In this document: piece by piece, positions 41,520-64,000 of the stretch
Layout of the letters: every line of letters starts with the position of its first letter
How positions within the stretch are numbered: position 1 is the first letter of the stretch
Assembly (NCBI GenBank): GCA_030695905.1
Contig: JAUYOL010000015.1
Span: 8,518-72,517, forward strand
DNA: 64,000 bases
Source of the DNA: Candidatus Omnitrophota bacterium
GTDB taxonomy: Bacteria > Omnitrophota > Gorgyraeia > 2-01-FULL-45-10
Direction: 5' to 3'
Position numbers and translations under genes: made by a program
Notes under the pieces: generated by a model
The model's database searches: none
What the model was told of the DNA's origin: nothing
The model's input: the letters and a program-made list of their open reading frames with translations, nothing else

Positions 41520-41522
41520 AAT

Positions 41523-43155: not shown

Positions 43156-43567
43156 TCTTCATATAGCGGCCGCTTATATTAGTTACATCATATTTTTTGT
43201 GGCTTCGGTAGCCGCGGTATTATATATCATACAGGACAACGCCATAAAGAATAAGCGGACAGCCGTTATCTTCAGCCGGCTACCGAGCCTATCTTTTTTA
43301 GACAAGCTTAACTACAGGAGCATAAGTTTAGCGTTTCCCATACTTACGCTCTCGATTTTCTGCGGATTTCTTTGGTCCGAGAATATCCACGGTATCTGCT
43401 GGTGGGGTTATAATTCCCGCCAGTTCTATTCTCTTGTCCTTTGGCTGATCTATGCCCTTATCCTGCATGTAAGATTATCTGCTAAGGTGCGGGGCCGAAA
43501 AGTGGCTCTGCTGTCTATTTTAGCTTTTTTTATAATAATTCTCAGTTTATTCGGTACCTGCCCGTAG
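43139..43567 (+). CDS. HemX-like truncated CcsA-family heme-handling membrane protein.
   Basis: 4 TM. ..HGICWWGYNSRQFYSLVLWLIYALILHVRL parallels the WWD/His region of the CcsA encoded at 56269 ([29 protein letters not shown]). It lies directly upstream of hemA, as in the Bacillus hemAX arrangement. Confidence 0.5.
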   Translation: MQRYLNLHIAAAYISYIIFFVASVAAVLYIIQDNAIKNKRTAVIFSRLPSLSFLDKLNYRSISLAFPILTLSIFCGFLWSENIHGICWWGYNSRQFYSLVLWLIYALILHVRLSAKVRGRKVALLSILAFFIIILSLFGTCP

Positions 43568-43582
43568 TTCGGAGAAATATAT

Positions 43583-47056: not shown

Positions 47057-47064
47057 AAACTAAA

Positions 47065-48231: not shown

Positions 48232-48237
48232 CTTAGG

Positions 48238-49305
48238 ATGGCCCAAAAGCGACCGAAGGAAACTCCCAAGAGGAGACAGAAAGTAGATCTAAGGTTAGTT
48301 GCGTGGGAATTGACACGCAGCTGCAACTTAGCCTGCAGTCATTGCCGGGCGTCAAGTAAGCATGGGCCGTATCCGGATGAATTGACCACCGAAGAATGTT
48401 TTAAGGTCATCGACGATATTGTTTCATTCAGTAAGCCCATTATCATTCTCACGGGCGGTGAGCCGTTATTAAGAAAAGATATTTTCGAGATCGCCGGATA
48501 CGGGAAAAAGAAGGGGCTTACCATGGTGATGGCGCCTAACGGCACGCTCTTAACCGAAGAGAATGTCAAAAAAATAATTAGCTCGGGTGTAAAAAGGATC
48601 TCGGTCAGCCTGGACGGCCCTGATGCCGGCTCTCATGATAATTTGAGGCAGGTTCCCGGTGCCTTCAATACTGCCTGTGACGGAATAGCAAGAGCAAAAA
48701 TAGCCGGTCTTGAATTTCAGATAAATACTACCGTCACCAAAAGAAATATAAAGCTGCTTCCCCGGATAATCAAATTGGCCAAAGACCTTGGAGCGAAGGC
48801 GCACCACATCTTTCTTCTTGTGCCAACGGGTCGGGCAAAAGAGATGGCCGAAGAAGAGTTGTCGGCATCGGAATATGAGGAAACGCTTAAATTGTTAGCG
48901 AGGGAGAAGAAGGGTTCTTCTTTGGAGATAAAGATAACCTGCGCTCCACACTTCAACCGCGTTTTGCTGCAGGAACACGCGGCCGCCGCGCCCAGCCTGT
49001 CCGGCAGGGGGTGCATGGGAGGGGTAAGTTTTTGTTTTATCTCGCATGTAGGCGACGCGCAGCCGTGCGGTTATCTTGAAATCAAATGCGGCAATATACG
49101 CAAACAAGCCTTTAAAGACATATGGCTTGAGTCCGAAGTATTTAATAATATCAGAGATTTCGGACAATATAAAGGTAAGTGCGGCGTCTGTGAATTTAAA
49201 GCCGTCTGCGGAGGATGCCGCGCCCGCGCTTATGCAAAATACAGTGATTATTTAAGAGAGGAACCTTATTGCACATATGAGCCAAAGTTTCCTGTCAAAA
49301 AATAG
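48238..49305 (+). CDS. Radical SAM/SPASM heme biosynthesis enzyme (AhbD or AhbC, NirJ-like), second copy.
   Basis: CNLACSHCR, GGEPLL, and a C-terminal CGVCEFKAVCGGC. Confidence 0.7.
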   Translation: MAQKRPKETPKRRQKVDLRLVAWELTRSCNLACSHCRASSKHGPYPDELTTEECFKVIDDIVSFSKPIIILTGGEPLLRKDIFEIAGYGKKKGLTMVMAPNGTLLTEENVKKIISSGVKRISVSLDGPDAGSHDNLRQVPGAFNTACDGIARAKIAGLEFQINTTVTKRNIKLLPRIIKLAKDLGAKAHHIFLLVPTGRAKEMAEEELSASEYEETLKLLAREKKGSSLEIKITCAPHFNRVLLQEHAAAAPSLSGRGCMGGVSFCFISHVGDAQPCGYLEIKCGNIRKQAFKDIWLESEVFNNIRDFGQYKGKCGVCEFKAVCGGCRARAYAKYSDYLREEPYCTYEPKFPVKK

Positions 49306-49753
49306 ATTAAGCTTGCTGGACAGGCGCATCCTGAACCGACTTCAGGAAGATATTCCGTTTGTAGAAAAGCCTTGGGCATTGATAGCGCAAGAGCTCGGGA
49401 TCAAGGAAGATCATCTTCTGGGGAGGGTCATTTTTTTTAAAGAGAAGGGCATAATCCGCAGGATAAGCGCGGTCTTCTCTCCGCGCAAAATTAATTTTAC
49501 CTCTACCCTGGCAGCGGTAAAAGTTACTCCGGGCAATATCGGGAAGATAGCAAAGAAGATAAATTCCTACCATGAGGTTACCCATAATTACAGACGAACC
49601 GGTGAATACGATCTTTGGTTTACACTGGTGGCTAAGGATAAGAAGAGGATCACACACATCCTGCGCCGGCTTAAGATGGATAAAAATATCGAAACAATAT
49701 CAGAGTTTCCAATGGTAAAATTATTTAAAATAGATGTAAAGTTCTACACCTGA
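49277..49753 (+). CDS. Siroheme decarboxylase subunit (AhbA/AhbB, NirD/L/G/H family Lrp/AsnC-like).
   Basis: About 155 aa with an N-terminal wHTH (LDRRILNRLQEDIPFVEKPW..) characteristic of NirDL-type proteins. Confidence 0.65.
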   Translation: MSQSFLSKNRLSLLDRRILNRLQEDIPFVEKPWALIAQELGIKEDHLLGRVIFFKEKGIIRRISAVFSPRKINFTSTLAAVKVTPGNIGKIAKKINSYHEVTHNYRRTGEYDLWFTLVAKDKKRITHILRRLKMDKNIETISEFPMVKLFKIDVKFYT

Positions 49754-49764
49754 AAGTATATCCG

Positions 49765-50232
49765 ATGCCCTCGAAACTCGACAAAGTAATAATAGGTTTA
49801 ATTTCACGGGACATGCCTTTAACAAAAAAGCCATTTAGGGATTTGGCCGCCTCACTTGGTATTGATGAGGGTCTTTTGCTCGAAAGGATACGATCGTTTA
49901 AAAAAAACGGGCTCATGCGCAAGTTCGCAGCGATCCTTAACCACAAAAAAATAGGTTTTCGGTATAATGCGATGGTGGTCTGGAATGTCCCGCAAAAATT
50001 TGTTGATAAGGCGGGCAGGGCAATGGCTTCATTTGACGAAGTAAGCCATTGTTATCAGAGGGAAAAAAGAAATGGCTGGAATTATAATTTGTATTCCATG
50101 ATACATGGCAGGACCAAGGAAGAAGTTTTCAGCGCAGTTAAAAAAATATCTGTCAGATTAGGGGGAAATTTTGAGCATAAAGCCTTGTTTTCATTTAAAG
50201 AAGAAAAGAAGACGGGAGCCAAATATTTATAA
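49765..50232 (+). CDS. Siroheme decarboxylase subunit (AhbB/AhbA), paralog of the preceding gene.
   Basis: Same architecture (LISRDMPLTKKPFRDLAASLGIDE...). It forms a tandem pair with the gene at 49277. Confidence 0.65.
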   Translation: MPSKLDKVIIGLISRDMPLTKKPFRDLAASLGIDEGLLLERIRSFKKNGLMRKFAAILNHKKIGFRYNAMVVWNVPQKFVDKAGRAMASFDEVSHCYQREKRNGWNYNLYSMIHGRTKEEVFSAVKKISVRLGGNFEHKALFSFKEEKKTGAKYL

Positions 50233-50283: not shown

Positions 50284-51072
50284 ATGAAAAATTGGAATAG
50301 ATATATATTTATCTTTTGCACAGCCGTGGTATTTGGAACAGCCGCCGTAAGTTATTGCGCCGCCCGATCAGAAGGTGATGCTGTCGAGCAGCCAGGCAAG
50401 ATTGCCGGCGCGACATATGTGGGCATGGAAACATGCGCCATGTGTCATGAAAAGATAGCGAAAAATTTTAAGAGATCCGACCATGCGCGTATAGTCGTCG
50501 CTTCCAAAGCTAAGGAAGGGCAAGCGTGCGAGACTTGTCATGGGCCGGGCAGCCTGCATGCCGATGCCCAGACAAAGGCCGAGAAGCACGCCACCATAAT
50601 TAATCCTAAGAAAACCCCCGAAACTTGTTATCAGTGTCATATGGATAAAAAAGCCTCTTTCAACCTGCAATATCACCATCCTGTGCCCGAAGGTAAAATG
50701 AGCTGTGCTGATTGCCACGATCCGCACGGAGAAGATGCCATCAGGCCGAACACAAATCGGTCTCTTTCACCCAAGAATGCCGTATGCGCCAAGTGTCATA
50801 AGGACCAGACGATGGTTTTTGCTTACGAACATGATGCGTTGAGAGAAGGCTGTACGACATGCCATGATGTGCATGGCTCGATAAATGATAAGATGCTTGT
50901 AGAAAGAGATGCTACCCTCTGCCTAAAGTGCCATTTCCAGGCGAATTTTCCTTCAACAGGTAATATTGGCAATCGAGGGCATGCGACTTCTGTAAATCGC
51001 GGTCCGTGCTGGAGTGGCGGTTGCCATACGGCAGTGCACGGTTCAAATTATAATGACCATCTCAGAATATAG
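50284..51072 (+). CDS. Periplasmic multiheme c-type cytochrome (7 canonical CxxCH plus one CxxxxCH), MtrA/OmaB-like.
   Basis: A signal peptide. CAMCH, CETCH, CYQCH, CADCH, CAKCH, CTTCH, CLKCH, plus CWSGGCH. 262 aa. Confidence 0.8.
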   Translation: MKNWNRYIFIFCTAVVFGTAAVSYCAARSEGDAVEQPGKIAGATYVGMETCAMCHEKIAKNFKRSDHARIVVASKAKEGQACETCHGPGSLHADAQTKAEKHATIINPKKTPETCYQCHMDKKASFNLQYHHPVPEGKMSCADCHDPHGEDAIRPNTNRSLSPKNAVCAKCHKDQTMVFAYEHDALREGCTTCHDVHGSINDKMLVERDATLCLKCHFQANFPSTGNIGNRGHATSVNRGPCWSGGCHTAVHGSNYNDHLRI

Positions 51073-51077
51073 TTAAT

Positions 51078-53144
51078 ATGAAGAAGAAAATAATATCGAT
51101 AGTCTGTATAAATTTTACCTTACCTGTATTACTATGCTCTTCATTGGTTTATGCGGGCGTATCAGAAGCGGGCGGTAATGGCGTAATCTACCCTTCGGTA
51201 TTATCGGTAGTTTCAGTCGGGGACAATGAAAAATTCCAGGAAGATCATTGGATGACGAACAATGTTCAGGGGGGCGTGTCCGATTACAACTATATCAACG
51301 AAGATCAACACGGCGGTTCTATTGTCGCCGACGGAAGGGTGGTCGCGGGCAATAACGACTATCTCTTTAATTTTGACTTAAAAAAAGAGGGGATAGGCAG
51401 CCTTATCTTCGATTTCAAACAGTTCAGGAAATATTATGACGGCACCGGAGGGTTTTTCTCTAACTTTGCGCCCACAGCTGCGTCTCGCTCAACTTATCTC
51501 GAGGCAGACAGAGCGCTTTTTCTGGATATAGGCAATTTTAAGATCGAAGGCACTCTTTCAAAAGAAGAGAACGCAAAATGTATCTTTTTATACGAGCGGG
51601 AGTATAGGCAGGGCACAAAGTCTTTGACAAGCTGGGGCAGTGTGGTCGAAGGCGGGACAACTCGAAATATATTGCCTACTTTCCTCGAAACCGATGAGAT
51701 CGTGGATAAATTTGAGATGAAGATCGAGCATACCACACCAAGCGGTATAGAGGTATCTGCGGAACAAGGGTATGAGAAGGTAAGGGTTGCCAACCAGAAG
51801 GTCAATAACCGGACCTATAATCTGGGTACCGGAGTATTTTCAAGCATCAGGTATAAATACGAAAATCTGAACGCCGATATTTATACAACGATATTGCGCA
51901 TATCTAAGGAGTTGAATGAAAGGGTCTTTTTGTCTATCGCCTTCCTGGAGGACTATAATGTCGGCAAGACAGAAGAAGTTATAACCGATACCTTGGCCCC
52001 CGGACTCGCCTCCACTGCCGAGAACCATCCTTTAAACCCGCAAAAGGTGCGTCAAAATCAGGTTAGCGTCCTTCCTAAGGCGACTATTTTACTATTAGAA
52101 AATTTGACGATGGATGTGGGGCTGAAGTGGGAGTGGATAAAGACGAAGGCTGTTGGAACTTATAATAAGAACAGGGCAACCGCCACCGTAACAGATGAGT
52201 TTGTGGATCTTGAGGTTAAAAAGGATGATAACCATATTGGGGAAACCTTTGGTCTTAAGTACGATGGGATGAGAGACGTAATATTTTACGCGGATGGTGA
52301 ACTCGAACAGCAGCTACGAAACGAAGATGAATCGCAGAGATCCTTCGGTCCTCAACCGGTTGGCACTGATAATTTTTCAAGAGACCAGAATATCCTTAGC
52401 CTTGATTACGATGTCACGTCAGGTTTTAAATGGTACCCTATATCGAAGGTCAATGTTACAGCGGAGTTTAAATATAAACATGGCACGCGGGACTACACAT
52501 TTCTTAGCACCACAAAGGCGGGCGACGTTGTAGGCGGCTACAGGGGTTTTCTTGACGAAATTGAGTACACCTCATACAAGCCTCTCGTTATGTTTAACTG
52601 TAAGCCTTTTAGATGGCTCGCCTGCAATTTTCGTTATGCTTTAGATACAACGGTCTACGGAGTACGGACACCGGCTGCCGAGGCTACCGAAAAAGCTCAA
52701 TACCTGGCGCATATCTATTCCGCGGGAGCCACGCTTACGCCGAAAGATTGCCTTTACATGACATTGTTTTACCAGTACAAACAGGCGTCAACCGAGACAC
52801 AGGCAAATGGTAACGGCGGTTCGGTGGAAAGAATGCCTACATATAACGCGAGTTTCAGGACGTTGAGCGCCTCATGCGGATATTCACCGGTTAAGGATAT
52901 TACACTAAAAGGCGACTACTCGTTCTCCAATGCCGATAACTTTAATGACTTCGTGAATATAGGGTTGCCGCTCGGGCTGGATAACTTTTCACAGGACGCC
53001 TCTATCGGAATTGAAAAAAAGCTCCGCGGCGACTGCTCCGTAGAATTCAAGTATGACTTCACGCAATATCACGAAACCTCTAACGGCGGTATCGATGATT
53101 ACGAAGCGCATCTTTTTTATACCGGATTAAAGATGAAATTTTAG
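51078..53144 (+). CDS. Large outer-membrane beta-barrel protein (688 aa), a candidate porin partner of the upstream cytochrome (MtrB/PioB/OmbB-like).
   Basis: A signal peptide. Abundant Y/G/T/N-rich alternating strands. It ends ..YTGLKMKF (C-terminal Phe). It starts 6 nt after the cytochrome gene. Confidence 0.55.
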   Translation: MKKKIISIVCINFTLPVLLCSSLVYAGVSEAGGNGVIYPSVLSVVSVGDNEKFQEDHWMTNNVQGGVSDYNYINEDQHGGSIVADGRVVAGNNDYLFNFDLKKEGIGSLIFDFKQFRKYYDGTGGFFSNFAPTAASRSTYLEADRALFLDIGNFKIEGTLSKEENAKCIFLYEREYRQGTKSLTSWGSVVEGGTTRNILPTFLETDEIVDKFEMKIEHTTPSGIEVSAEQGYEKVRVANQKVNNRTYNLGTGVFSSIRYKYENLNADIYTTILRISKELNERVFLSIAFLEDYNVGKTEEVITDTLAPGLASTAENHPLNPQKVRQNQVSVLPKATILLLENLTMDVGLKWEWIKTKAVGTYNKNRATATVTDEFVDLEVKKDDNHIGETFGLKYDGMRDVIFYADGELEQQLRNEDESQRSFGPQPVGTDNFSRDQNILSLDYDVTSGFKWYPISKVNVTAEFKYKHGTRDYTFLSTTKAGDVVGGYRGFLDEIEYTSYKPLVMFNCKPFRWLACNFRYALDTTVYGVRTPAAEATEKAQYLAHIYSAGATLTPKDCLYMTLFYQYKQASTETQANGNGGSVERMPTYNASFRTLSASCGYSPVKDITLKGDYSFSNADNFNDFVNIGLPLGLDNFSQDASIGIEKKLRGDCSVEFKYDFTQYHETSNGGIDDYEAHLFYTGLKMKF

Positions 53145-54454
53145 TGAAATCCCGCAATAATGGAAAAAAAAAGTTCAAAAATTCCGCAAACCTTTTTAAA
53201 CTAGCCAAGAAGTTTATTCCAGGAGGAGTAAATAGTCCCGTACGCGCTTTTAAGGCCGTTGGTACAACGCCTCTCTTCATTTCCAGGGGCAAGGGCGCGT
53301 ATGTCTATGATGTGGATGGTAATAAATTCATCGATTATGTCATGTCATGGGGTCCTCTTGTTTTAGGCCATGCCGATGAGAGAGTGGTCGGGCCGGTAGC
53401 CAAGGCTTTAAAGCGAGGCACCAGTTTTGGCGCTCCGACCAAACAAGAAATAGAGTTAGCGCGGTTAGTGACCGACATCTACCCCTCTATTAAAAAAGTC
53501 CGGCTCACTTCTTCCGGGACCGAGGCTGCGATGAGCGCTATCAGGCTTGCTCGCGGATACACCGGCCGTGAGAAGATATTAAAATTCGAAGGCTGTTATC
53601 ACGGCCACTCAGATAGCCTTTTAGTTAAAGCGGGTAGTGGCTTGGCCACTTTTGGGGTTCCTTCCTCTGCAGGCGTGAACAAAAATGTCGCCAGGGACAC
53701 GATTACAATCCCATTCAATAGTATAGAAAAATTCGAAAAAGCTGTCGCGAAGGAAAAAGATAATATCGCCTGCGTTATTGTTGAGCCTATACCGGCAAAT
53801 ATGGGCGTTGTGTTGCCCGGGCCGGGATTTCTTAAAAAGTTAAGACAGGTAACGAAAGAAAGCGGTATCGTCCTGATCTTCGATGAAGTAATAACGGGTT
53901 TCCGCGTGGCCCTGGGTGGGGCGCAGGAGTTTTTAGGGGTATCTCCGGATCTAACCATACTGGGTAAGATTTTGGGAGGCGGCTTTCCCATAGGCGCTTT
54001 TGGCGGTAAGCCCGAGATAATGGATCTTCTATCTCCCGATGGTCCGGTATATCAGGCCGGCACTCTGTCAGGGAATCCCGTGGCTGTCGAGGCAGGTCTT
54101 GCCACCATACGTATTTTAATGAGCAATAAGGTGTATGATAAACTGCGGAATTTGGGGGATGCGCTTGAGTCGGGCTTTCGGCGGATCATCGCACGGCAGG
54201 CGCAGGGTGTAACATTGCAGAGATGTGGTTCTTTGTTCACTCTTTTCTTTACAGAAAAAAAGGAGATATTAAATTATCAGGATGCGTTGGCGTGCGATAC
54301 AGATGCATTCGCGTTATTTTTTCGCGGGATGCTTGAGCGGGGTATATATCTTGCCCCTTCGCAATTCGAGGCAAATTTTATTTCCGCTGCGCACACCCTG
54401 CGCGAGATAGAGAAGACTTTAAAAGCGGCAGAAGCCGCGTTTTTAAAAGAATAA
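53144..54454 (+). CDS. hemL: Glutamate-1-semialdehyde 2,1-aminomutase.
   Basis: IPGGVNSPVRAF; PLP lysine region ..ILGKILGGGFPIGAFGG.. Confidence 0.9.
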   Translation: MKSRNNGKKKFKNSANLFKLAKKFIPGGVNSPVRAFKAVGTTPLFISRGKGAYVYDVDGNKFIDYVMSWGPLVLGHADERVVGPVAKALKRGTSFGAPTKQEIELARLVTDIYPSIKKVRLTSSGTEAAMSAIRLARGYTGREKILKFEGCYHGHSDSLLVKAGSGLATFGVPSSAGVNKNVARDTITIPFNSIEKFEKAVAKEKDNIACVIVEPIPANMGVVLPGPGFLKKLRQVTKESGIVLIFDEVITGFRVALGGAQEFLGVSPDLTILGKILGGGFPIGAFGGKPEIMDLLSPDGPVYQAGTLSGNPVAVEAGLATIRILMSNKVYDKLRNLGDALESGFRRIIARQAQGVTLQRCGSLFTLFFTEKKEILNYQDALACDTDAFALFFRGMLERGIYLAPSQFEANFISAAHTLREIEKTLKAAEAAFLKE

Positions 54455-54577: not shown

Positions 54578-55114
54578 GTGCGTAAATTGTTTTTTTGGAT
54601 AGTAGTGATGTCGGTTTTTTGTGCGATTGGTTATGTCTGGGCAGAAGGGCCTCATAAATATGTGGGAGTGAAGAAGTGTGCGATGTGTCACAAATCCGAA
54701 TCAAAGGGGAACCAGTATGGCCAATGGCTTGCTTCTGCGCACGCCAAGGCCTATGAAAGGCTCGCAAGCCCCGAGGCGCTGGAATCGGCTAAGAAGAAAG
54801 GTATCGCGGGTAACCCGCAGGAAGCCCCCCAATGTGTAAAATGCCACGTTACCGGTTATGGCGAAGACACCAGCCTGTTTGCCGAAAGTTTTGTAAAGAC
54901 GGATGGTGTCCAGTGCGAGACTTGCCATGGAGCGGGAAGCGACTACTTGAGCTTAAGCGTGATGAAGGACAGGGCAAAGGCCATAGCGGCAGGCCTTATT
55001 ATTCCGACTAAGGAGCTATGTGTCAAATGTCATAACCCGGAGAGCCCGAATTATAAAGAATTTAATTACGACGAATATGTTAAAAGGATAGCTCATCCGA
55101 GGCCGAAAGAATAA
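54578..55114 (+). CDS. Periplasmic tetraheme c-type cytochrome.
   Basis: GTG start with RBS aaggggagg. A signal peptide. CAMCH, CVKCH, CETCH, CVKCH. Confidence 0.8.
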   Translation: MRKLFFWIVVMSVFCAIGYVWAEGPHKYVGVKKCAMCHKSESKGNQYGQWLASAHAKAYERLASPEALESAKKKGIAGNPQEAPQCVKCHVTGYGEDTSLFAESFVKTDGVQCETCHGAGSDYLSLSVMKDRAKAIAAGLIIPTKELCVKCHNPESPNYKEFNYDEYVKRIAHPRPKE

Positions 55115-55125
55115 AGAATAAAAAT

Positions 55126-56265
55126 ATGTCTTTAAAGCAGACCAGGGTCTGGAAGTTTTTTTCTTCGATAAAGCTGGCCATATGGTTACTCGCTATAATC
55201 GCCGCGCTTTCTTTGCTGGGCACATTTATCCCGCAAAATCAGGAAGCCTCCTTTTACATCGATAAATATGGACATTCTGGGTATAGGGCCTTGCTGGAGA
55301 CCGGCCTAACCGACGTCTATTCTTCTTTCTGGTTTGTACTTCTCCTGGTGCTTTTCTCAATAAACCTGATCGTGTGTCTTATAAACAGGATCTCCCTTAA
55401 GATGCGCATGCTGGGGTCTATACTATCCCACGCCAGTATCCTGATAATATTGATAGGTGCTCTTATAGGCATATTCTTCGGCCAAAAAGGGCTTGTAAAA
55501 ATAAGCGACGGTGAAGAGGTGAGTTCTTTTACCACCCAGGATAAAAAGCGTGTTGACCTGGGGTTTTCGGTAAGGCTTGATAAATTTATCTATAGCGAGC
55601 ACATCGACCCGAAAGAAAAATTATTAGTTTGTCCCGTTAAAAATACCGTCTCTAATGGGGCTGATTCCCCGCAAAGTGATGCATGCTGCAGTAAAGATAG
55701 CCCTCAAAGTTCCGGCAAGAACCAGGGTCTTATAGCGGAGATCCCTACTGAAATAGGCGTAGAGCATGATATTGCGGACACTGGGTATAAGATAAAGATT
55801 CTGCGTTACATCCCTGATTTTGCTATAGATACTGTCACGAAAGTAGCAGCGAGCCGATCGGCTAAGGCAAATAATCCCGCGATACAGGTTCAACTTAATG
55901 ATAAGGCCGGTCAAGTCTCCACATTCTGGGTATTTGCCCGCTTTCCCGACATGCATCAGAAGATGGACCAAAGGTTTAAATTCACATATCATTGGATCGG
56001 CCGTCGGCCGAAAGATTTTATCAGCAAAGTTACCATATTGAAGGCCGGCAAGGAGATTATAACTAAAGATATACGCGTAAATGAACCGCTTCGTTTCGGC
56101 GGATATACTTTTTTTCAGTTCAGTTACGATGCCGAAGATCTTAAGTGGTCGGTCCTTCAGGTAGTTAAAGATCCCGGCGTGGGTGTGGTTTACGCCGGAT
56201 TTATTATGCTCATAGCGGGTCTCATTATCATATTCTATGTCAATCCGCTAACCAGGGGGAGATAA
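55126..56265 (+). CDS. resB: Cytochrome c biogenesis protein ResB/CcsB (system II).
   Basis: The N-terminus ..VWKFFSSIKLAIWLLAIIAALSLLGTFIPQ.. is the classic ResB. A large periplasmic domain and a C-terminal TM. Confidence 0.8.
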   Translation: MSLKQTRVWKFFSSIKLAIWLLAIIAALSLLGTFIPQNQEASFYIDKYGHSGYRALLETGLTDVYSSFWFVLLLVLFSINLIVCLINRISLKMRMLGSILSHASILIILIGALIGIFFGQKGLVKISDGEEVSSFTTQDKKRVDLGFSVRLDKFIYSEHIDPKEKLLVCPVKNTVSNGADSPQSDACCSKDSPQSSGKNQGLIAEIPTEIGVEHDIADTGYKIKILRYIPDFAIDTVTKVAASRSAKANNPAIQVQLNDKAGQVSTFWVFARFPDMHQKMDQRFKFTYHWIGRRPKDFISKVTILKAGKEIITKDIRVNEPLRFGGYTFFQFSYDAEDLKWSVLQVVKDPGVGVVYAGFIMLIAGLIIIFYVNPLTRGR

Positions 56266-56268
56266 GAG

Positions 56269-57042
56269 ATGTCGGCCATGTATATTAATTTCAGTTTCGC
56301 GGTATTTTTTTTAGCCATGATTTTATATGCGGCAGGGCTCTTGTTCAAAAATAAGGCGCTCCCGTTGTTAGCAAAATCTCTCATGGCCTGCGGTATCCTC
56401 AGCCTTTCACTATATATAGGTATCCGCTGGCAGGTTGCCGGCAGGCCGCCATTCAGTAATATGTTTGAATCGCTGGTCGTGCTCAGCTGGGCTATCGCCA
56501 TTACTTCTGTTTTTATCGATATAAAATACAGGATTAAGAATATTGCGGCATTGACGGCTTTGATGAGCTTGCTGGCGATAGGATATGCTTCGTTATTAGA
56601 TAAAGAAATAGTCCCCCTCCTGCCTGCTTTGAAAAGCAACTGGCTTTCCATCCATGTCTTGACCTGCTTCATCGGATATGCTGCTTTAACCGTAGCTTTT
56701 GTTTCAAGCGCCGTGCTTTTGTGCAGGAAAAAAGAGGATATAAGTCTGGATATTGTAAGTTACAAGATGATAACATTCGGATTTTTATTCCTTACACTGG
56801 GCATCATCAGCGGCGCCATATGGGCGAATTCTGCGTGGGGCACTTACTGGAGCTGGGATCCTAAAGAAACATGGTCTTTGATTACCTGGTTTGTCTACGC
56901 CATCTATTTACATATCCGTCTGACGAAAGGATGGAAGGGAAAGCCAGCGGCCTGGCTATCGGTGGCGGGGTTCCTGGCAATGCTCTTTACCTATTTCGGC
57001 GTAAATTATCTATTGCCGGGTTTACATAGTTACTCGGGTTAA
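56269..57042 (+). CDS. ccsA: Cytochrome c assembly protein CcsA/ResC (system II heme lyase).
   Basis: WWD domain WGTYWSWDPKETWSL, and conserved His residues. Confidence 0.85.
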   Translation: MSAMYINFSFAVFFLAMILYAAGLLFKNKALPLLAKSLMACGILSLSLYIGIRWQVAGRPPFSNMFESLVVLSWAIAITSVFIDIKYRIKNIAALTALMSLLAIGYASLLDKEIVPLLPALKSNWLSIHVLTCFIGYAALTVAFVSSAVLLCRKKEDISLDIVSYKMITFGFLFLTLGIISGAIWANSAWGTYWSWDPKETWSLITWFVYAIYLHIRLTKGWKGKPAAWLSVAGFLAMLFTYFGVNYLLPGLHSYSG

Positions 57043-57045
57043 TAC

Positions 57046-57486
57046 ATGGTACAGAAAAAAATTACCAGACGTGAATTTATAAATTACATTTTAGGCGGAT
57101 CCCTTTTGGGCCTGGCGGCAAGCGCCGCGTACTCGATATTCCGTTACATAACACCCCCCGAAGGCACAGAGACCGCAGTTTCGAGCGCAGTAGCGGGCCG
57201 AAAAGGAGAATTGGCTCCCAATTCCGGCAAAATATTTAAATTCGGGGATAAGCCCGGTATATTGATAAATACTTTAGGCGGTGAATTATTAGCCTTTAAT
57301 GCCGTTTGCACTCATCTAAACTGCACCGTCCAGTATGATCCGCAGGCGGCTTGTATCTGGTGCGCGTGCCATAACGGGCGTTTCGACCTGAACGGCAAGG
57401 TGATCTCCGGCCCACCGCCCCGTCCTCTGGAAAAATACGATGTTAATATAAGGGGGGATGATATTGTCGTTTCAAAAAATATATAA
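57046..57486 (+). CDS. Rieske [2Fe-2S] subunit of a cytochrome bc-type complex.
   Basis: Tat signal TRREFI. Box I CTHLNC and box II CACHNGRF. Confidence 0.85.
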   Translation: MVQKKITRREFINYILGGSLLGLAASAAYSIFRYITPPEGTETAVSSAVAGRKGELAPNSGKIFKFGDKPGILINTLGGELLAFNAVCTHLNCTVQYDPQAACIWCACHNGRFDLNGKVISGPPPRPLEKYDVNIRGDDIVVSKNI

Positions 57487-58540
57487 TTGGTTTGATGAGA
57501 GATACCAGATCTCCGGCGTCAGGGATTTTCTCGCGAAAAAGACCGTGCCCGTACATAAGCATTTCGTATGGTATTATTTCGGCGGCATAACGCTGTTTCT
57601 ATTTCTGGTTCAGGTTGTGACAGGAGTGCTCCTGCTTTTTTACTACAAGCCAACCGCCTCCGAGGCGTTTGAGTCTGTAAAATTCATAATGACCAAAGTT
57701 GAATTTGGATGGCTTATACGTTCCATCCATTCCTGGAGCGCTAATCTGATGGTTTTTTCGGCGTTTGTGCATCTCTTTTCTACATTTTTTATGAAATCAT
57801 ACAGGCCGCCGCGTGAGGTGACATGGGTCACGGGCGCATTCCTGTTTTTTATTGCAATGGGACTGGGATTTACAGGGTATTTGCTGCCATGGAACGAGCT
57901 TTCATTTTTTGCCACCAAGGTCGGCACCCAGATAGCCGGTTCGGTACCGGTAGTGGGATCATACCTTCGGACCGTACTTCGCGGTGGAGAAGAGATATCG
58001 GACGCCACTATAACAAGATTTTTTGCATTGCATGTCATGGTGCTTCCTATTGCTATTGTAGCGATGTTGGGACTGCACCTGGCAATGGTACAGGTTCAGG
58101 GGATGAGCGAACCGCTTTCGGTAGCTAAAAGTCCCGAGAAGAAGAGCATGAAGTTCTTTCCTAATTTTTTTTTGAGAGACATAATCGTTTGGCTATTAAT
58201 ATTTGCCGGGCTTCTTGCTTTAAGTGTTATGTTCCCATGGGAGTTGGGCAAGAAAGCAGATCCTTTTGCACCTACCCCGATCGGCATAAAACCTGAATGG
58301 TATTTTGTATGGATGTTCCAGACGTTGAAGATAATCCCGTCCAAGATACTATTATTTGACGGTGAAGTGCTCGGTATTTTAGCGTTTGGCGCGGCCGGAC
58401 TCGCATTGGTTATACTCCCCTTTATGGATATCTGGGCCAGACGTGAAAAGCGCAACCCTTTATTATCGATCTTGGGCGTTTGCGTTATATTATATATGCT
58501 AGTAATGACTTATCTGGCGTACTTCGGTCCGCAAAAGTGA
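57458..58540 (+). CDS. Cytochrome b subunit (fused b6/subunit-IV type) of a bc complex.
   Basis: ..WYYFGGITLFLFLVQVVTGVLL.., heme-ligand His residues in helices B and D, and ..PEWYF.. 360 aa. Confidence 0.85.
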   Translation: MILSFQKIYNWFDERYQISGVRDFLAKKTVPVHKHFVWYYFGGITLFLFLVQVVTGVLLLFYYKPTASEAFESVKFIMTKVEFGWLIRSIHSWSANLMVFSAFVHLFSTFFMKSYRPPREVTWVTGAFLFFIAMGLGFTGYLLPWNELSFFATKVGTQIAGSVPVVGSYLRTVLRGGEEISDATITRFFALHVMVLPIAIVAMLGLHLAMVQVQGMSEPLSVAKSPEKKSMKFFPNFFLRDIIVWLLIFAGLLALSVMFPWELGKKADPFAPTPIGIKPEWYFVWMFQTLKIIPSKILLFDGEVLGILAFGAAGLALVILPFMDIWARREKRNPLLSILGVCVILYMLVMTYLAYFGPQK

Positions 58541-59796
58541 TGAGGGCATTAATGTATAAAAAACTTATATTCATATTCATTATCGTTTTAGCGGCGTCTT
58601 TCGTTGTAAAGTCCGAGGCGGCGGCAAAGGATTATTGTATCGAATGCCACAAGTCATTAGAGGCAAGTGCGAAAGAGCCTACAGACAAGATTGAAGGGGA
58701 TGTTCATTTCAAACGCGGCCTTTCATGTTCCGACTGTCATGGTGGTGACTCCACAAAAGAGGATTTTACGGAGGCAAAAGATACAGGCAAAGGGTTTATC
58801 GGAAAGCCGAAGAGAAACGATATCCCTTTATTCTGTGGCAAGTGCCATGCCGACCCCGCGTATATGCGAAAGTTCAATCCAAACATCCAGACAGACCAGC
58901 TTGCAAAATATAATGAAAGCCAACACGGAAAATTGAATGCCCAGGGTGATCAGAAAGTCGCTGTTTGCGTAAGCTGTCACGACGTTCACGGAATAAGAGA
59001 GAAGAATGATCCTTTGTCACCGATATTCATAACGAACGCGCCGAAACGCTGTGCGTCTTGCCATGCCGATAAAGAATACATGAAAGAATATAGTATACCG
59101 ACGAACCAGATGGAGGAATACGAGCAGGGCGTTCATGGGGAAGCGCTGCTGAAGAAAGGCGATCGCGGCGCACCCGCCTGCCATAGTTGTCACGGTTCTC
59201 ATGACGCGGCACTGCCTCGGGCTATCGCTGTCGGCAATATCTGTGCCCAGTGCCATTCGCTGACACGGGACCTTTTCGCAAAAAGCCCGCACAAAGCGGC
59301 TCATGATAAGCTGGGGATACCCGAATGTGAAGCTTGCCACGGAAATCATAAGATCGTCCGCACATCCGATGACATGCTCGGGACAGGCGAAGGAGGCGTG
59401 TGTGTAAAATGCCATAAGGAGGATTCTGCCGGGTACGCCGTAGCCACGCTGATGAAGAAGGTTATATTAGGATTAAAGGGCGATATAGAAGCTTCGCAAG
59501 CTATAGTTGAGGATGCCGAAAAGTACGGCATGGAGGTCTCGGATACAAAATTCTATCTGGATGAGGCAAAAAATTCCCTAACGAAATCACGCACCTATAT
59601 ACATACCTTTTCAAAAGATAGCGTAGACAGAATAGTGAAAGACGGCATAAGTTCAGCAGATAAAGCAAAGGATAAAGGCAAGCTCGCTATAAGTGAGCTT
59701 GGTTTCAGGCGTAAGTGGCTTGCGGTTGTAGTCGGTATAATATTATTGCTGGCATTTGCGGTTTATCTCAAAATCAGGGGGATGGAGAAGAAATAA
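58540..59796 (+). CDS. Nonaheme c-type cytochrome with a C-terminal membrane anchor (the multiheme subunit of the bc complex).
   Basis: 9 CxxCH (CIECH, CSDCH, CGKCH, CVSCH, CASCH, CHSCH, CAQCH, CEACH, CVKCH) and a C-terminal TM (WLAVVVGIILLLAFAVYL). The start is chosen at the ATGA overlap with the cytochrome b stop; the ATG at 58552 is also possible. Confidence 0.75.
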   Translation: MRALMYKKLIFIFIIVLAASFVVKSEAAAKDYCIECHKSLEASAKEPTDKIEGDVHFKRGLSCSDCHGGDSTKEDFTEAKDTGKGFIGKPKRNDIPLFCGKCHADPAYMRKFNPNIQTDQLAKYNESQHGKLNAQGDQKVAVCVSCHDVHGIREKNDPLSPIFITNAPKRCASCHADKEYMKEYSIPTNQMEEYEQGVHGEALLKKGDRGAPACHSCHGSHDAALPRAIAVGNICAQCHSLTRDLFAKSPHKAAHDKLGIPECEACHGNHKIVRTSDDMLGTGEGGVCVKCHKEDSAGYAVATLMKKVILGLKGDIEASQAIVEDAEKYGMEVSDTKFYLDEAKNSLTKSRTYIHTFSKDSVDRIVKDGISSADKAKDKGKLAISELGFRRKWLAVVVGIILLLAFAVYLKIRGMEKK

Positions 59797-59800
59797 GGTA

Positions 59801-61384
59801 ATGAAGAAAAAAATCCTCCTTATAATAGCGGGAATCGCGTTCTTTTTTATTGCCGGTTTTATTTTTTTCTTTAAATTCTCAACCAGCCCCCAATTCTGCA
59901 GATCCTGCCATATAATGAAACCGTATTATGACTCATGGAAGGCCTCCAAACATAATAAAGTGGCCTGCGTGGATTGTCATTATCCCCCAGCGGGCCATAG
60001 GACACTTTTATGGAAGAAATTTCAGGCTATGTCGCAGATAGTAAAATATATAACTCGGACATATTCATCCAGGCCGTTCGCGGAAATTGACGACAGTGCC
60101 TGTTTGAGAGAGGGCTGCCATTCGAAGCGACTGGTGGAAGGTAAGTTGACATTTGGTAATGGGATAAAATTTGACCACAGGCCGCATCTTACACAGCCGC
60201 GGCGGGACAGGCAGCTGCGTTGCGTATCCTGCCATTCGCAGATCATGGTCGGAAAACACCTCGAGGTTACGCTCGATACTTGTTATCTGTGCCATTTTAA
60301 AGGTATGAAGGGCTCGCGAACGCTTGAGCCTATAGGCGGCTGCATCTCCTGCCATGAATTACCGGAAAAACAATTTATGTTGGGGAACATCAAATACAGG
60401 CATAAAGATTTTGTTAGTGAGCATGGCGTCGAATGTCAAAACTGTCATTTGGATGTGATTCAGGGGGATGGCTCCGCTCCGAAAGAGAGGTGCTATGCCT
60501 GTCATAACCAACCGGACAGGCTGGAAAGATATAGCGATACATCGTTCATCCATGAAAATCATATAACCAAACATAGTATAGCGTGTTTTCATTGTCATAC
60601 AGAGATGAAGCACTCCGTGAAGACAGTAGCGAGAACTCAGAAGCTTGATTGTGCAATGTGTCACGTTGACATGCATTCCGGGCAGAAGGATATGTATGAA
60701 GGGCATGGCGGCGAAGAAGTGGGCGAGATGCCGTCCCCAATGTATTTGGCCCGCGTAGATTGTTTGGGATGCCACATAATAGAGACGCATAGAGGCGAAG
60801 AGTCAGACGAGCGCTTCACCGGTAAGACATTTAAGGCCTCCGAAGCGGGATGCATTAAATGCCATGGCCAGAAATATGCGGGTCTCGTGGCCGACTGGAA
60901 AAAAGAATTAAGATTCGCGCTGGAAGTTATCGATGCCCGGCTTAAGACGACACAGGATATGTTGTCGCAGATTTCGCCAAATGCGCCAAATTTCTCATCG
61001 TTGAATAACCTGTATGACGGCGCGCGTCATAATTATGACTTCGTACGTCTTTCGACCGGGATACACAATATATATTACTCCGCAAAATTGCTGGAAAAAG
61101 TAAACGACGACCTGAATAAGTTAACTAATGAAGCAAAGAAGCCTCTTCCCGAGTCGTCCAAAGCCAGCCTGCTGGATGGCAGTTTCTGTGCTACGCTTTG
61201 CCACGCTAAATTAGACGTTAAAATTCCCGAAGAGGTTAAATATAAGGGTAAAGATATGCCCCATAGTATGCATATTGAACAAGTGGGGGCGTGTGTGAAT
61301 TGCCACACCATAGGCCGCCATAAAGAGATGCCGCTTAAGGAAGATCTTTCTATCTGTAACACCTGCCATGAAAAAGGTATATAG
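59801..61384 (+). CDS. NapC/NrfH-type membrane-anchored multiheme c-type cytochrome (about 13 CxxCH plus 1 CxxxCH).
   Basis: An N-terminal TM followed directly by CRSCH, the NapC/NirT family hallmark. 13 canonical CxxCH motifs plus CATLCH. Confidence 0.8.
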   Translation: MKKKILLIIAGIAFFFIAGFIFFFKFSTSPQFCRSCHIMKPYYDSWKASKHNKVACVDCHYPPAGHRTLLWKKFQAMSQIVKYITRTYSSRPFAEIDDSACLREGCHSKRLVEGKLTFGNGIKFDHRPHLTQPRRDRQLRCVSCHSQIMVGKHLEVTLDTCYLCHFKGMKGSRTLEPIGGCISCHELPEKQFMLGNIKYRHKDFVSEHGVECQNCHLDVIQGDGSAPKERCYACHNQPDRLERYSDTSFIHENHITKHSIACFHCHTEMKHSVKTVARTQKLDCAMCHVDMHSGQKDMYEGHGGEEVGEMPSPMYLARVDCLGCHIIETHRGEESDERFTGKTFKASEAGCIKCHGQKYAGLVADWKKELRFALEVIDARLKTTQDMLSQISPNAPNFSSLNNLYDGARHNYDFVRLSTGIHNIYYSAKLLEKVNDDLNKLTNEAKKPLPESSKASLLDGSFCATLCHAKLDVKIPEEVKYKGKDMPHSMHIEQVGACVNCHTIGRHKEMPLKEDLSICNTCHEKGI

Positions 61385-61389
61385 CAAGT

Positions 61390-63267
61390 ATGTGCATAGA
61401 TAAATTTAAATTTAGTTGCCCTGCTATATTTTTTTTAATAATGTTTTCATCGCTTTGCGCTGCTTCCGCGATTGAAAATTCCGATTGTTTGGAATGTCAT
61501 GAAGATAGTGTACGCTCCGCTTATAATTTATCCGTCCACCGTAAAAATTTATGCACAAGTTGCCATGCAGATATTACCACGCTGCCGCATTCTGAAAAAG
61601 TAAGCAAACCTGTATGCAATCAATGCCATAGACTCGAAACCGAAATCTATAATTCGAGCGACCATGGCGTAGCTTTAAAGGCCGGCGTAGACGAGGCCGC
61701 TTCCTGCCGTAATTGCCACGGTGAACCGCATTCTATCTTAGACTCCCGTAATAAAGACTCGTCGGTCTATCGGGCAAATATTCCCAAAACCTGTGCCTTG
61801 TGCCACGAAGACCAAAAAAGAATGGCAAAATACGAATTAACGGAGAAGATGCCGTATAGATCTTATTCCGAAACAGTCCACGGTAAGGCATTAATAGAAA
61901 AAGGTTTGATCTCAGCCGCTGTCTGTACCGATTGCCATGGCTCGCATGACCTATATTCCATGGCCAACCCCAAATCAAAAATATACCGGACAAACGTTCC
62001 TTCTACCTGTGGGAAATGCCATGAGAACGTATCGAAGACCTATGAGCGCAGTGTTCATGGAAAATCCGTTTTGGCAGGCCGCAGAGAAGCGCCTGTCTGT
62101 ACCGATTGCCACGGCGAACATAGCATAAAGTCCCACAGCGAACCCTCATCGTCGGTATACCCGACCGCCATATCCGAAAAAACCTGCCCGCGCTGTCACG
62201 CGTCGGAAACCGTCATCAGCAAATACCGGCTTCCGGGCAATATGGTAAAGACATATATGGAGAGTTATCATGGCCTTGCAAGCAAAAGCGGGTCCACGGT
62301 AGTCGCAAACTGCGCAAGCTGCCATGGTGTGCACGACATACTGCCGTCAAGCGACCCCAATTCCTCCGTAAACAAAGCTAACCTGCCCCAGACCTGTGGG
62401 AAATGCCATCCGGGAGCGGGGGCAAGATTAGCGAAGGGTTCCGTGCATATCAATCCTTCGGCAACGAGGGATAGGGCGGTATTCTATGTCACTATTTTTT
62501 ATATCTTCCTGATAATTATGACAATAGGCGGGATGAGTATCTATGTTGGCCTGGATTATTTAAGCAGATTAAGAGAGCATTACAAGAGAGTCCGCTCCGA
62601 AGCTAAAATCATGAGATGGACATTTAATGAACGCCTTCAGCATGGCCTGCTTCTTATAACTTTCACTGTCCTTGCATATACCGGTTTTGCCCTGAGGTTC
62701 TCTGACGCGTGGTGGGCGTTCCCATTCACGGTCGTTAAAGGCGGTTTTGACTGGAGGGGGATATTACACAGATGTATGGCGGTAATATTTTGCCTGCTCT
62801 GTGTTTATCACGCAGGATTTTTAATTTTCACGAAGCGGGGCAAGATTGAATTCAAGGCGTTTCTGCCGAGAATGAAGGATTTTGTGGATTTATATAAAAT
62901 GCTTATGTATAATCTTGGTATCTCCAAAGAAAAGCCAAAATTCGAAAGATTTAATTTTATAGAAAAATCCGAATATTGGGCGCTTATTTGGGGAGCGTTA
63001 ATAATGATCGTAACAGGGCTGCTGCTTACTTTTAACAACTTAGCAATGCGGTATTTGCCGAAATGGCTATTGGATGTTGCGGCGACCATACATTTCTATG
63101 AAGCCCTTCTCGCTACACTGGCTATCCTTATCTGGCATTTATATTTTTCGATATTTTCGCCCGAGCATTATCCGATGAATTGGTCCTGGCTTACCGGGAG
63201 GACCACCGAAGATGAACGCCGGGAGAACGATCCTTCAAAGGATAAAGAAAACAAGGCTGATTCATAA
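61390..63267 (+). CDS. Fusion protein: a periplasmic 11-heme c-type cytochrome domain plus a C-terminal di-heme cytochrome b membrane domain (FdnI/HydC-like), CbcL-like.
   Basis: A signal peptide. 11 CxxCH in aa 30-340. Then 5 TM with RWTFNERLQHG (the FdnI/PhsC/HyaC-type motif) and conserved His residues. Confidence 0.75.
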   Translation: MCIDKFKFSCPAIFFLIMFSSLCAASAIENSDCLECHEDSVRSAYNLSVHRKNLCTSCHADITTLPHSEKVSKPVCNQCHRLETEIYNSSDHGVALKAGVDEAASCRNCHGEPHSILDSRNKDSSVYRANIPKTCALCHEDQKRMAKYELTEKMPYRSYSETVHGKALIEKGLISAAVCTDCHGSHDLYSMANPKSKIYRTNVPSTCGKCHENVSKTYERSVHGKSVLAGRREAPVCTDCHGEHSIKSHSEPSSSVYPTAISEKTCPRCHASETVISKYRLPGNMVKTYMESYHGLASKSGSTVVANCASCHGVHDILPSSDPNSSVNKANLPQTCGKCHPGAGARLAKGSVHINPSATRDRAVFYVTIFYIFLIIMTIGGMSIYVGLDYLSRLREHYKRVRSEAKIMRWTFNERLQHGLLLITFTVLAYTGFALRFSDAWWAFPFTVVKGGFDWRGILHRCMAVIFCLLCVYHAGFLIFTKRGKIEFKAFLPRMKDFVDLYKMLMYNLGISKEKPKFERFNFIEKSEYWALIWGALIMIVTGLLLTFNNLAMRYLPKWLLDVAATIHFYEALLATLAILIWHLYFSIFSPEHYPMNWSWLTGRTTEDERRENDPSKDKENKADS

Positions 63268-63276: not shown

Positions 63277-63462
63277 ATGGAGGTGGTAAGTATGTTTGGT
63301 AATATAGGAATGCCGGAACTATTTGTTATACTTTTAATTTGTCTTTTAGTCTTTGGCGCGGGAAAATTGCCGGAGATTGGCAAGTCATTTGGTAAGGCTA
63401 TCAACGAATTTAAAAAAGGGATGAAAGAAATAGATTCAGACACGAAGAACGTGGGAAAATAA
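63277..63462 (+). CDS. tatA: Twin-arginine translocase subunit TatA/E.
   Basis: MFGNIGMPELFVILLICLLVFGAGKLPEIGKSFGKAI.., 61 aa, and an RBS ggaggtgg. Confidence 0.85.
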   Translation: MEVVSMFGNIGMPELFVILLICLLVFGAGKLPEIGKSFGKAINEFKKGMKEIDSDTKNVGK

Positions 63463-63478: not shown

Positions 63479-64000
63479 ATGGATAAAGATTTAACCTTTG
63501 TAGGGCATCTCGAAGAATTGCGCCGCAGGATAATAGTGTCTTTGATATTTATTACCATAGTCAGTGTCCTCGCGTTTCCTTGCGCTTCAAAGATATTGGC
63601 TATCCTGAAAATTCCGAGCGCGGGCTTTATAGGAAAACTTGTTTTTTTTGATCCTCAAGAGGCCTTTTTAATCCATATTAAAATCGCTTTTTTTGCCGGA
63701 TTAGCGGTATCTATGCCTGTAATATTGTATCAATTATGGGCGTTTATCTCTCCTGCCATAGAAACTAATACAAAAAAAATCGGTTCATTATTTTTATTTT
63801 TTTCCGTAGGAGCATTCGCTTCAGGCGTGTCTTTCGGATTTTTTATATTACTTCCGGCAGCCCTTAAGTTTCTGCTTAGCTTCTCCGGGAACAATCTGGA
63901 GCCGTTAATTTCTGCTTCAAATTATATATCTTTTGTGTTAGGCTTGACTTTAGGGTGCGGGCTTGTTTTTGAAATGCCTGTTTTAAGTTTCATATTATCA
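63479..64000 (+). CDS. tatC: Twin-arginine translocase subunit TatC (partial, runs off the window).
   Basis: ..FVGHLEELRRRIIVSLIFI.. is the TatC N-terminus, followed by TM helices. No stop before position 64000. Confidence 0.8.
   Translation, partial: MDKDLTFVGHLEELRRRIIVSLIFITIVSVLAFPCASKILAILKIPSAGFIGKLVFFDPQEAFLIHIKIAFFAGLAVSMPVILYQLWAFISPAIETNTKKIGSLFLFFSVGAFASGVSFGFFILLPAALKFLLSFSGNNLEPLISASNYISFVLGLTLGCGLVFEMPVLSFILS

Follow-up and report, generated by a model that had tools for sequence, protein, structure and literature searches.

An 11-haem cytochrome c/cytochrome b fusion in an Omnitrophota cytochrome gene cluster is an uncharacterised relative of CbcL and a probable quinone-linked oxidoreductase

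The CbcL/MtrH/MtoC family comprises proteins of 416-1034 amino acids (aa) with 3-23 haem motifs and 4-6 helices, and the published survey of it spans 15 phyla and includes three Omnitrophica proteins (PMC6295460). In Geobacter CbcL (GSU0274, 619 aa), nine CxxCH motifs occupy the N-terminal half and transmembrane helices the C-terminal half (PMC6295460), and all nine haems were measured as bis-His ligated (PMC9129911). CbcL is a menaquinol oxidase for which proton release on the cytoplasmic side has been proposed (10.1101/2022.08.31.506072; 10.1101/2023.05.03.539133). It works without partner subunits (10.1101/2022.08.31.506072) and is needed for acceptors below ~-0.1 V, a role known for Geobacter only (10.1101/2022.08.31.506072; PMC9129911). 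Here a gene of this kind is described from a 64,000-nucleotide stretch of a Candidatus Omnitrophota contig (JAUYOL010000015.1, assembly GCA_030695905.1; the whole stretch is called the window below). Its product, which fuses an 11-haem c-type cytochrome to a dihaem cytochrome b, is an uncharacterised member of this already described family, and with a probability of about 0.78 it functions as an inner-membrane quinol/quinone:multihaem-cytochrome oxidoreductase of the CbcL/MtrH/MtoC kind.

The gene and the parts of its product, with the basis of each assignment in brackets, are as follows.

61390..63267, plus strand: the whole target gene, a multihaem c/cytochrome b fusion of 625 aa, stop codon included (open reading frame (ORF) listing and translation)
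61390..61470, plus strand: probable Sec signal peptide, aa 1-27, ending in CAASA and followed by IENSDC (by inspection)
61471..62448, plus strand: 11-haem c-type cytochrome domain, periplasmic, aa 28-353 (CxxCH motifs, Pfam)
62461..62559, plus strand: transmembrane helix 1 (TM1), aa 358-390, joining the c domain in the periplasm to the b domain, which starts on the cytoplasmic side (hydropathy, AlphaFold helix)
62614..63156, plus strand: FdnI/HydC-type dihaem cytochrome b domain, aa 409-589, with the four-helix core TM2-TM5 (PF01292)
62641..62643, plus strand: His418 codon, candidate ligand of the cytoplasmic-side haem b, counterpart of FdnI His18 (alignment, conservation)
62767..62769, plus strand: His460 codon, candidate ligand of the periplasmic-side haem b, counterpart of FdnI His57 (alignment, conservation)
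63091..63093, plus strand: His568 codon, candidate ligand of the periplasmic-side haem b, counterpart of FdnI His155 (alignment, conservation)
63136..63138, plus strand: His583 codon, candidate ligand of the cytoplasmic-side haem b, counterpart of FdnI His169 (alignment, conservation)
63157..63264, plus strand: short charged cytoplasmic tail, aa 590-625, without a sixth transmembrane helix (hydropathy)

The ORF at 61390-63267 (+) is one continuous frame with no interruption, and its GC content (0.452) equals that of the whole window. The protein is 100% identical to P0001, an NCBI entry from a Candidatus Omnitrophota metagenome-assembled genome that is named 'cytochrome b/b6 domain-containing protein'. 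The listed homologues of 49-88% identity number more than 100, come from independent assemblies and match it in length and Pfam architecture. When one genome per species was scanned, a relative turned up in at least 587 species genomes, and the best 80 of these relatives are full-length and 40-59% identical to the target; they come from Omnitrophota, Verrucomicrobiota, Kiritimatiellales, Elusimicrobia, Desulfobaccales, KSB1, Zixibacteria, Ignavibacteria and many Acidobacteriota, while Geobacter is not among these best 80. An exhaustive HMMER search of 1.84 billion cluster representatives returned 1130 clusters (50% identity) that match at E<=1e-30. Because the frame is continuous and the architecture is conserved in hundreds of independent assemblies, the fusion is genuine and a frameshift artefact is excluded.

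Separate 11-haem and cytochrome b versions do occur in some Acidobacteria, which is what could be said for an assembly or sequencing error having joined two genes. Yet the linker helix is conserved along with the uninterrupted frame, the architecture recurs across the listed homologues, species genomes and clusters counted above, and the loci with split versions carry a fused paralogue too, so that such an error is next to impossible. The split form was seen in seven (L040, L041, L049, L059, L063, L066 and L080) of the 82 related loci that were fetched for comparison: a ~400-aa 11-haem protein is followed by a separate ~290-aa cytochrome b with an extra C-terminal helix (for example, L059:9950-10819). 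The fused 11-haem paralogue is directly adjacent in most of them and a few genes off in L066 and L080. That split forms exist supports the view that the c and b halves work together.

In the c domain, a script count found 11 CxxCH motifs (at aa 33, 55, 76, 106, 135, 179, 207, 237, 266, 308 and 336), where 0.06 would be expected by chance from the protein's own composition; no CxxxCH or CxxCK variant occurs in the full protein. The N-terminus ahead of them looks, on inspection, like a signal peptide, with lysines, a hydrophobic segment (aa 6-31) and A-S-A before I28, and the A-x-A/IEN junction is retained in homologues. Three of the motifs stand singly, and four doubled-CxxCH modules (106/135, 179/207, 237/266 and 308/336) come after them. 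The doubled unit reads C-x2-C-H-G-x-H ... T-C-x2-C-H, with 28-29 residues separating its two motifs, and Pfam matches Paired_CXXCH_1 (five times), Cytochrome_C7 and Cytochrom_c3_2 in this domain. Relatives with 9, 13 or 19 haems differ from the 11-haem type by whole doubled-CxxCH units, as judged by spacing.

Ligand conservation was read from an alignment of the window protein with 26 homologues (27 sequences; homologues 49-88% identical). All 11 CxxCH are invariant in it, and exactly 11 more c-domain His are invariant as well (50, 67, 92, 114, 164, 186, 223, 244, 294, 315 and 353). As 11 extra His is the count required, the domain fits an all-bis-His ligation of its 11 haems, each with one distal His and none with a conserved Met ligand; such ligation, measured in CbcL, would thus be a likeness that conservation suggests for the target.

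After the haem domain, hydropathy and the AlphaFold model agree on five hydrophobic segments or helices (approximately aa 358-390, 412-436, 455-480, 523-547 and 558-589); in the tail behind them (aa 590-625) the hydropathy maximum is -1.7. The loop that follows TM1 (aa 391-411) is rich in Lys and Arg. Because the Lys/Arg distribution of the loops (positive-inside rule) and the FdnI structure fit the same arrangement, the predicted topology has the c domain outside, a linker helix running inward and a four-helix core that starts and ends in the cytoplasm.

The core is of FdnI/HydC type. PF01292 (Ni_hydr_CYTB) matches aa 409-589 with E 3e-15 (56.9 bits; cut-off 30.1), which is the Pfam check that the first-pass annotation had proposed for its FdnI/HydC assignment. 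The segment RWTFNERLQH (aa 409-418) aligns with RTKFIDRACH of E. coli FdnI. Four membrane-domain His (H418, H460, H568 and H583) are invariant in the 27-sequence alignment and fall, in a HMMER alignment, on His18, His57, His155 and His169 of E. coli FdnI (1kqf_C), as well as on His of CbcL-type fragments; the conserved His ligands noted in the first pass are thereby borne out. In the FdnI structure, His18 and His169 reportedly ligate the cytoplasmic-side haem and His57 and His155 the periplasmic-side one. With all four His present, and the fusion conserved in hundreds of genomes, the c-b fusion stands, and the sequence description first given for it (signal peptide, 11 CxxCH, five helices and RWTFNERLQH) was right in every detail.

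A Foldseek search of the whole-protein AlphaFold model (mean pLDDT 68, pTM 0.49) against the Protein Data Bank (PDB) placed FdnI 1kqf_C first (probability 1.00; TM-score 0.66 on the target; 206 columns), with HyaC further down the list. The target thus resembles E. coli FdnI (formate dehydrogenase-N; PDB 1KQF chain C) and HyaC (hydrogenase-1), both of them gamma subunits, in its four-helix dihaem fold, its His-ligand positions and the R-x5-R-x2-H motif at the start of the domain. In sequence the likeness to FdnI is faint (E 0.065 against PDB; structurally aligned residues 19% identical). Where FdnI, as a subunit of its own, docks an iron-sulfur subunit, the target has a covalently joined 11-haem domain and an additional helix. 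No match to PF00033 or PF00032, the Pfam models for cytochrome b/b6 of bc1/b6f complexes, was found in the target. The bc1/b6f-type cytochrome b that its NCBI name suggests is ruled out on this ground, the b6-type protein being the product of a separate gene (57458-58540).

The nearest curated NCBIfam models are those of the formate dehydrogenase gamma subunit (TIGR01583, E 8e-17) and the Ni/Fe-hydrogenase cytochrome b (TIGR02125), which raises the question of a gamma subunit or membrane anchor of a periplasmic formate dehydrogenase or hydrogenase, to which the c domain would be an accessory. The surroundings of the gene lend this some colour: the window ends inside tatC, and in locus L001, which holds an orthologue 81% identical to the target, the genes after it are moeA, tat genes, mobA and a formate dehydrogenase, that is, molybdenum-cofactor, Tat and formate-dehydrogenase-like genes. 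However, the TIGR01583 score (61.9 bits) is far under the equivalog cut-off (115.85), and that for TIGR02125 is 17.8 bits against 121.5. No FdnG/FdnH or hydrogenase large/small subunit gene is adjacent among the window neighbours or in L001, the formate dehydrogenase of L001 is of the cytoplasmic, NuoE/NuoF-linked type, and the c domain sits where FdnH would dock. A gamma-subunit role is therefore very improbable.

Set beside the CbcL/MtrH/MtoC family, the protein has a c domain ahead of the membrane domain, a PF01292 b domain, conserved b-haem His and homology to CbcL-type sequences; in place of six helices it has five, inside the range of 4-6 accepted in the survey (PMC6295460). The CbcL-type sequences compared were C-terminal fragments (the last two haems plus the membrane domain), recovered with machine-read and partly misread alignment pieces from the PMC9129911 supplement as bait (six short fragments), and for the first nine haems the comparison was confined to motif spacing. 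Among the matches listed for the search with fragment P0122, no full-length protein of ~619 aa appeared (all <=394 aa; 6130 passed E 1e-10). By BLASTP the target is 31% identical to P0130 over 342 columns (E 4e-37) and 26% identical to P0128 (E 4e-25), both of them Desulfuromonadia-type CbcL C-terminal fragments close to P0127 (NCBI 'cytochrome C, partial [Geobacteraceae bacterium]'). The P0130 match, which agrees with the CbcL-like fusion recognised in the first pass, spans the last two haems, TM1 and the entire b domain; P0130 has a sixth helix in addition. Ahead of the membrane helix, the last haem spacings are 29/42/28 residues in the target and 28/43/28 in GSU0274.

Target and CbcL (GSU0274) are both single chains with the same order of parts: a multihaem c domain at the N-terminus, then a linker helix, then the dihaem b domain of FdnI/HydC type. 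They differ in haem number (11 in the target and nine in CbcL; by spacing, one more doubled-CxxCH module in the target), in the number of transmembrane helices (five and six), in the TM1-TM2 and TM3-TM4 loops, which are shorter in the target, and in setting, since the target gene lies in a large cytochrome cluster whereas the Geobacter CbcL gene stands alone. The first-pass annotation had taken its c-domain-first order and differing haem count as signs of a distinct variant. The order is no difference, as GSU0274 has it too (PMC6295460); the count does differ from the nine of CbcL, but the family spans 3-23, and an 11-haem Omnitrophica protein, OGX07562.1, was already listed (PMC6295460). With the c-first order normal for the family and the haem count inside the published range, that argument for novelty fails.

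The listed protein, a 649-aa Omnitrophica WOR_2 entry of Table S2, has 11 CxxCH at nearly the spacing of the target (PMC6295460), and two other Omnitrophica entries of the 2018 survey, OGW95399.1 and OGW82754.1, have 20 haems each (PMC6295460). All three share phylum and architecture with the target, but six helices are predicted for them. The architecture is also that of MtoC/MtrH (Dechloromonas Daro_1404, Gallionella Galf_2006 and Rhodoferax Rfer_4073), which, compared by published description, have 9 haems and 6 predicted helices (PMC6295460) against 11 and five in the target. Genes for MtoC/MtrH adjoin mtoAB/mtrAB (PMC6295460), and the target gene likewise has a 7-haem MtrA-like cytochrome and a putative barrel in its cluster, as Acidobacteria relatives have MtrA-family cytochromes and putative porins beside them.

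None of the fused relatives examined in the genome loci (60 with eleven haems, 14 with thirteen) has the sixth C-terminal helix, nor does any of the 109 eleven-haem proteins from the homologue search. The helix does occur in 100 of the 106 haem-free Geobacteraceae-type fragments, in 11 of the 12 stand-alone cytochrome b proteins of split forms and in the 19-haem paralogues. A pairwise matrix of b domains likewise falls into two groups, the window type (41-47% identity within) and the CbcL type (44-53% within), with 26-35% between them; the CbcL-type group holds the Geobacteraceae-type fragments, a 19-haem Omnitrophota paralogue and a stand-alone b protein, and the target b domain is 31-32% identical to this type. 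CbcL in the strict sense has nine haems, a sixth C-terminal helix and more than ~57% identity among Desulfuromonadia orthologues of GSU0274, none of which holds for the target. Thus, with 11 haems, no sixth helix and such b-domain identity, the target is not a CbcL orthologue and belongs to a large sister clade of CbcL. This clade (11 or 13 haems, five helices) is common in Omnitrophota, Acidobacteriota and Verrucomicrobiota.

In some Omnitrophota, an 11-haem five-helix protein and a 19-20-haem six-helix paralogue are encoded a few genes apart (L008:7072-9873; genome of P0051). For example, OGW95399.1 lies ten genes from P0051, the target orthologue in the same genome. The b domain of the long (19-haem) paralogue is 50-53% identical to Geobacter-type CbcL, compared with 32% to the neighbouring 11-haem protein.

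A mechanism for the target can be sketched by analogy with published work on CbcL and FdnI. His418 and His583 would hold a haem b near the cytoplasmic face, beside the quinone site, and His460 and His568 would hold one near the periplasmic face. (Mena)quinol would be oxidised at the cytoplasmic-side site near haem b and its protons released to the cytoplasm, because of which the quinol step would add nothing to the proton motive force. Electrons would cross the membrane via the two b haems, run along the 11 bis-His c haems in the periplasm and then pass to soluble or outer-membrane cytochromes encoded nearby (a c554-like tetrahaem protein, and a 7-haem MtrA-like one with a putative porin). As the reaction should run both ways, the protein could instead reduce quinone with electrons taken up from outside.

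The genes around the target in the window are these.

40596-42506, plus strand: prenyltransferase and polyprenyl synthetase
42511-50232, plus strand: haem biosynthesis genes of the siroheme-dependent (Ahb) type
50284-51072, plus strand: 7-haem MtrA/DmsE-like cytochrome (TIGR03508, 158 bits, below the cut-off of 192)
51078-53144, plus strand: 688-aa secreted protein, putative outer-membrane beta-barrel (sequence features)
53144-54454, plus strand: class-III aminotransferase, possibly HemL, among the cytochrome genes
54578-55114, plus strand: tetrahaem c554-like cytochrome, four CxxCH
55126-56265, plus strand: ResB/CcsB, system II cytochrome c maturation
56269-57042, plus strand: CcsA, system II cytochrome c maturation
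57046-57486, plus strand: Rieske iron-sulfur protein (PF00355)
57458-58540, plus strand: cytochrome b of b6/subunit IV type (PF00033, PF00032, NF002990 cytochrome b6)
58480-59796, plus strand: 9-haem cytochrome with a C-terminal membrane anchor
59756-61384, plus strand: 13-haem membrane-anchored cytochrome with an NrfH/NapC-type quinol-dehydrogenase N-terminus (PF03264, TIGR03153)
63292-63462, plus strand: tatA (translation)
63479-64000, plus strand: tatC, partial, to the window end (translation)

The Ahb-type genes, which directly precede the cytochrome genes, comprise a siroheme synthase-like gene, HemA, HemC, a CobA-HemD fusion, two radical-SAM genes and an NirDL-like decarboxylase. The Rieske protein, the b6-type cytochrome b and the 9-haem cytochrome form a bc-type complex in which the multihaem subunit replaces cytochrome c1 or f. 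The product of 59756-61384 matches TIGR03153 (NrfH) with E 1e-19 and has one transmembrane helix and 13 CxxCH plus one CxxxCH (CATLCH), its first four haems being NrfH-like; it is a putative second quinol dehydrogenase, encoded directly upstream of the target with a gap of 5 bases. The true start of this gene probably lies ~15 codons downstream of the TTG, and the L001 orthologue has 527 aa. The 688-aa protein has a signal peptide, no transmembrane helix and the C-terminus ...YTGLKMKF, and family searches gave no significant match to it (best, DUF6252 at E 0.029, below threshold). It is probably an outer-membrane barrel and, with the MtrA-like cytochrome, a candidate porin-cytochrome conduit (50284-53144); orthologues occur in L001 (57%) and L008 (29%). 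Complex I subunits and ETF-QO are encoded elsewhere in the window, and the organism therefore has a quinone-based chain. Taken together with these, the cytochrome maturation, Rieske/cytochrome b, NrfH-like and MtrA-like genes of the cluster fit a respiratory electron-transfer role.

Several points weigh against assigning the target a CbcL-like quinol/quinone:cytochrome oxidoreductase function. The function is carried over, by analogy, from a relative with only 31-32% b-domain identity, in which a sixth transmembrane helix is present that the target lacks, and the homology proposed for the N-terminal part to that of Geobacter CbcL is read from motif spacing in a published table. The quality of the AlphaFold model is only moderate, and the barrel beside the MtrA-like cytochrome is predicted from its sequence features. 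The role may also differ from that of the lone Geobacter CbcL, because the target gene, in its operon-like cluster, has two further quinol-interacting modules as neighbours. Finally, the sequence is compatible with electron flow in either direction, and the family is represented among metal reducers as well as metal oxidisers (PMC6295460).

This last point opens the way for the same protein to work in reverse, as a quinone reductase whose electrons come from a donor outside the cell or in the periplasm (Fe(II), for instance, which has been proposed in the case of MtoC), the Rieske/cytochrome b complex then serving the other branch. Such a direction would suit a family that is found in Fe(III) reducers and Fe(II) oxidisers with no sequence feature to separate the two (PMC6295460), and a cluster in which the Rieske/cytochrome b complex occurs together with the MtrA-like cytochrome and putative porin. 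On the other hand, the window revealed neither an oxidase nor another high-potential sink, and an FdnI-type site on the cytoplasmic side runs either way, hence gives sequence no means of discrimination. We regard operation in reverse as a credible but rather unlikely alternative.

The other loci fetched show how far this neighbourhood recurs. L001 repeats the gene order of the window from the c554-like gene through to the target. The commonest neighbour is an ImcH-like cytochrome gene, which lies directly next to the CbcL-like gene in 39 of the 82 loci (for example, L009:8409-9935); its product, ~500 aa long, has three helices near the N-terminus and one CxxxCH plus six CxxCH, at positions that match those in Geobacter ImcH. 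In Geobacter, by contrast, the ImcH and CbcL genes are unlinked and serve different potential ranges. Of the 82 loci, 12 carry a Rieske/cytochrome b/9-haem trio no more than 10 kb from the CbcL-like gene; this conserved trio was noted, besides the window, in L007-L009, L012, L020, L021, L029, L035, L042, L047 and L053. The NrfH-like 13-haem neighbour is rare (5 of the 82, or 6 with the window). By family models, a decahaem MtrA-family cytochrome followed by a 726-851-aa putative porin stands beside the CbcL-like gene in the Acidobacteria loci L026 and L053; by clustering, a pairing of a 10-haem cytochrome with a 750-905-aa protein also occurs in L029, L032, L047 and L056.

Such linkage could mean that the target is one subunit of a supercomplex with the NrfH-like 13-haem cytochrome, the Rieske/cytochrome b/9-haem module or both. 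The 5-base gap to the upstream gene, its retention in gene order in the 81% identical locus, and the frequencies of the ImcH-like neighbour and of the Rieske trio all point that way. The linkage is not universal, however, as the counts for the NrfH-like gene illustrate; moreover, adjacency is no proof of physical association, and CbcL works without partners (10.1101/2022.08.31.506072). A supercomplex is thus unlikely.

From the frequent ImcH-like and NrfH-like adjacency, together with the recurrent linkage to Rieske/cytochrome b/9-haem and MtrAB-like genes, it might tentatively be proposed, with doubt still outweighing belief, that the 11/13-haem five-helix clade is a distinct, widespread sister lineage of CbcL that serves as one arm of a multi-module electron hub between quinone and the outside in uncultivated phyla (Omnitrophota, Acidobacteriota and Verrucomicrobiota). 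If this were true, the clade would have another energetic role than Geobacter CbcL, which acts alone as a low-potential 'safety valve'.

An oxidoreductase of the CbcL/MtrH/MtoC kind would, with its surroundings, mark this Omnitrophota genome as carrying a full kit for electron transfer between the quinone pool and the periplasm or outside (haem synthesis, cytochrome maturation, three quinol-interacting modules, and the MtrA-like cytochrome with its putative porin), which bears on the livelihood of a poorly understood, uncultivated phylum in groundwater. The current picture of how CbcL-type proteins work stays unchanged, and the target itself will not surprise a specialist. For the CbcL field, the side results are moderately interesting: a clade split that sets apart a sister clade without the sixth helix, a haem number that varies by doubled-CxxCH modules, and the adjacency of ImcH-like and CbcL-like genes outside Geobacter.

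Some minor observations were made along the way. Directly downstream of the CbcL-like gene in L009 (L009:11813-14834) lie genes for a multihaem cytochrome (MHC), an HmcB/HybA-like iron-sulfur protein and an HmcC/NrfD-like membrane protein. The same MHC/HmcB-like/NrfD-like module is present in L008, L015, L016, L017 and L020 (several Omnitrophota and Verrucomicrobia loci) and is a putative further quinone-interacting module. Elsewhere in the window, 4291-10434 encodes a 2047-aa protein whose N-terminal 1300 aa have no Pfam match and whose C-terminal 750 aa form a GH94 (cellobiose/chitobiose phosphorylase-like) module, and two GH3-family genes (PF03321, auxin-responsive GH3-type) are located at window positions 14512 and 19481.

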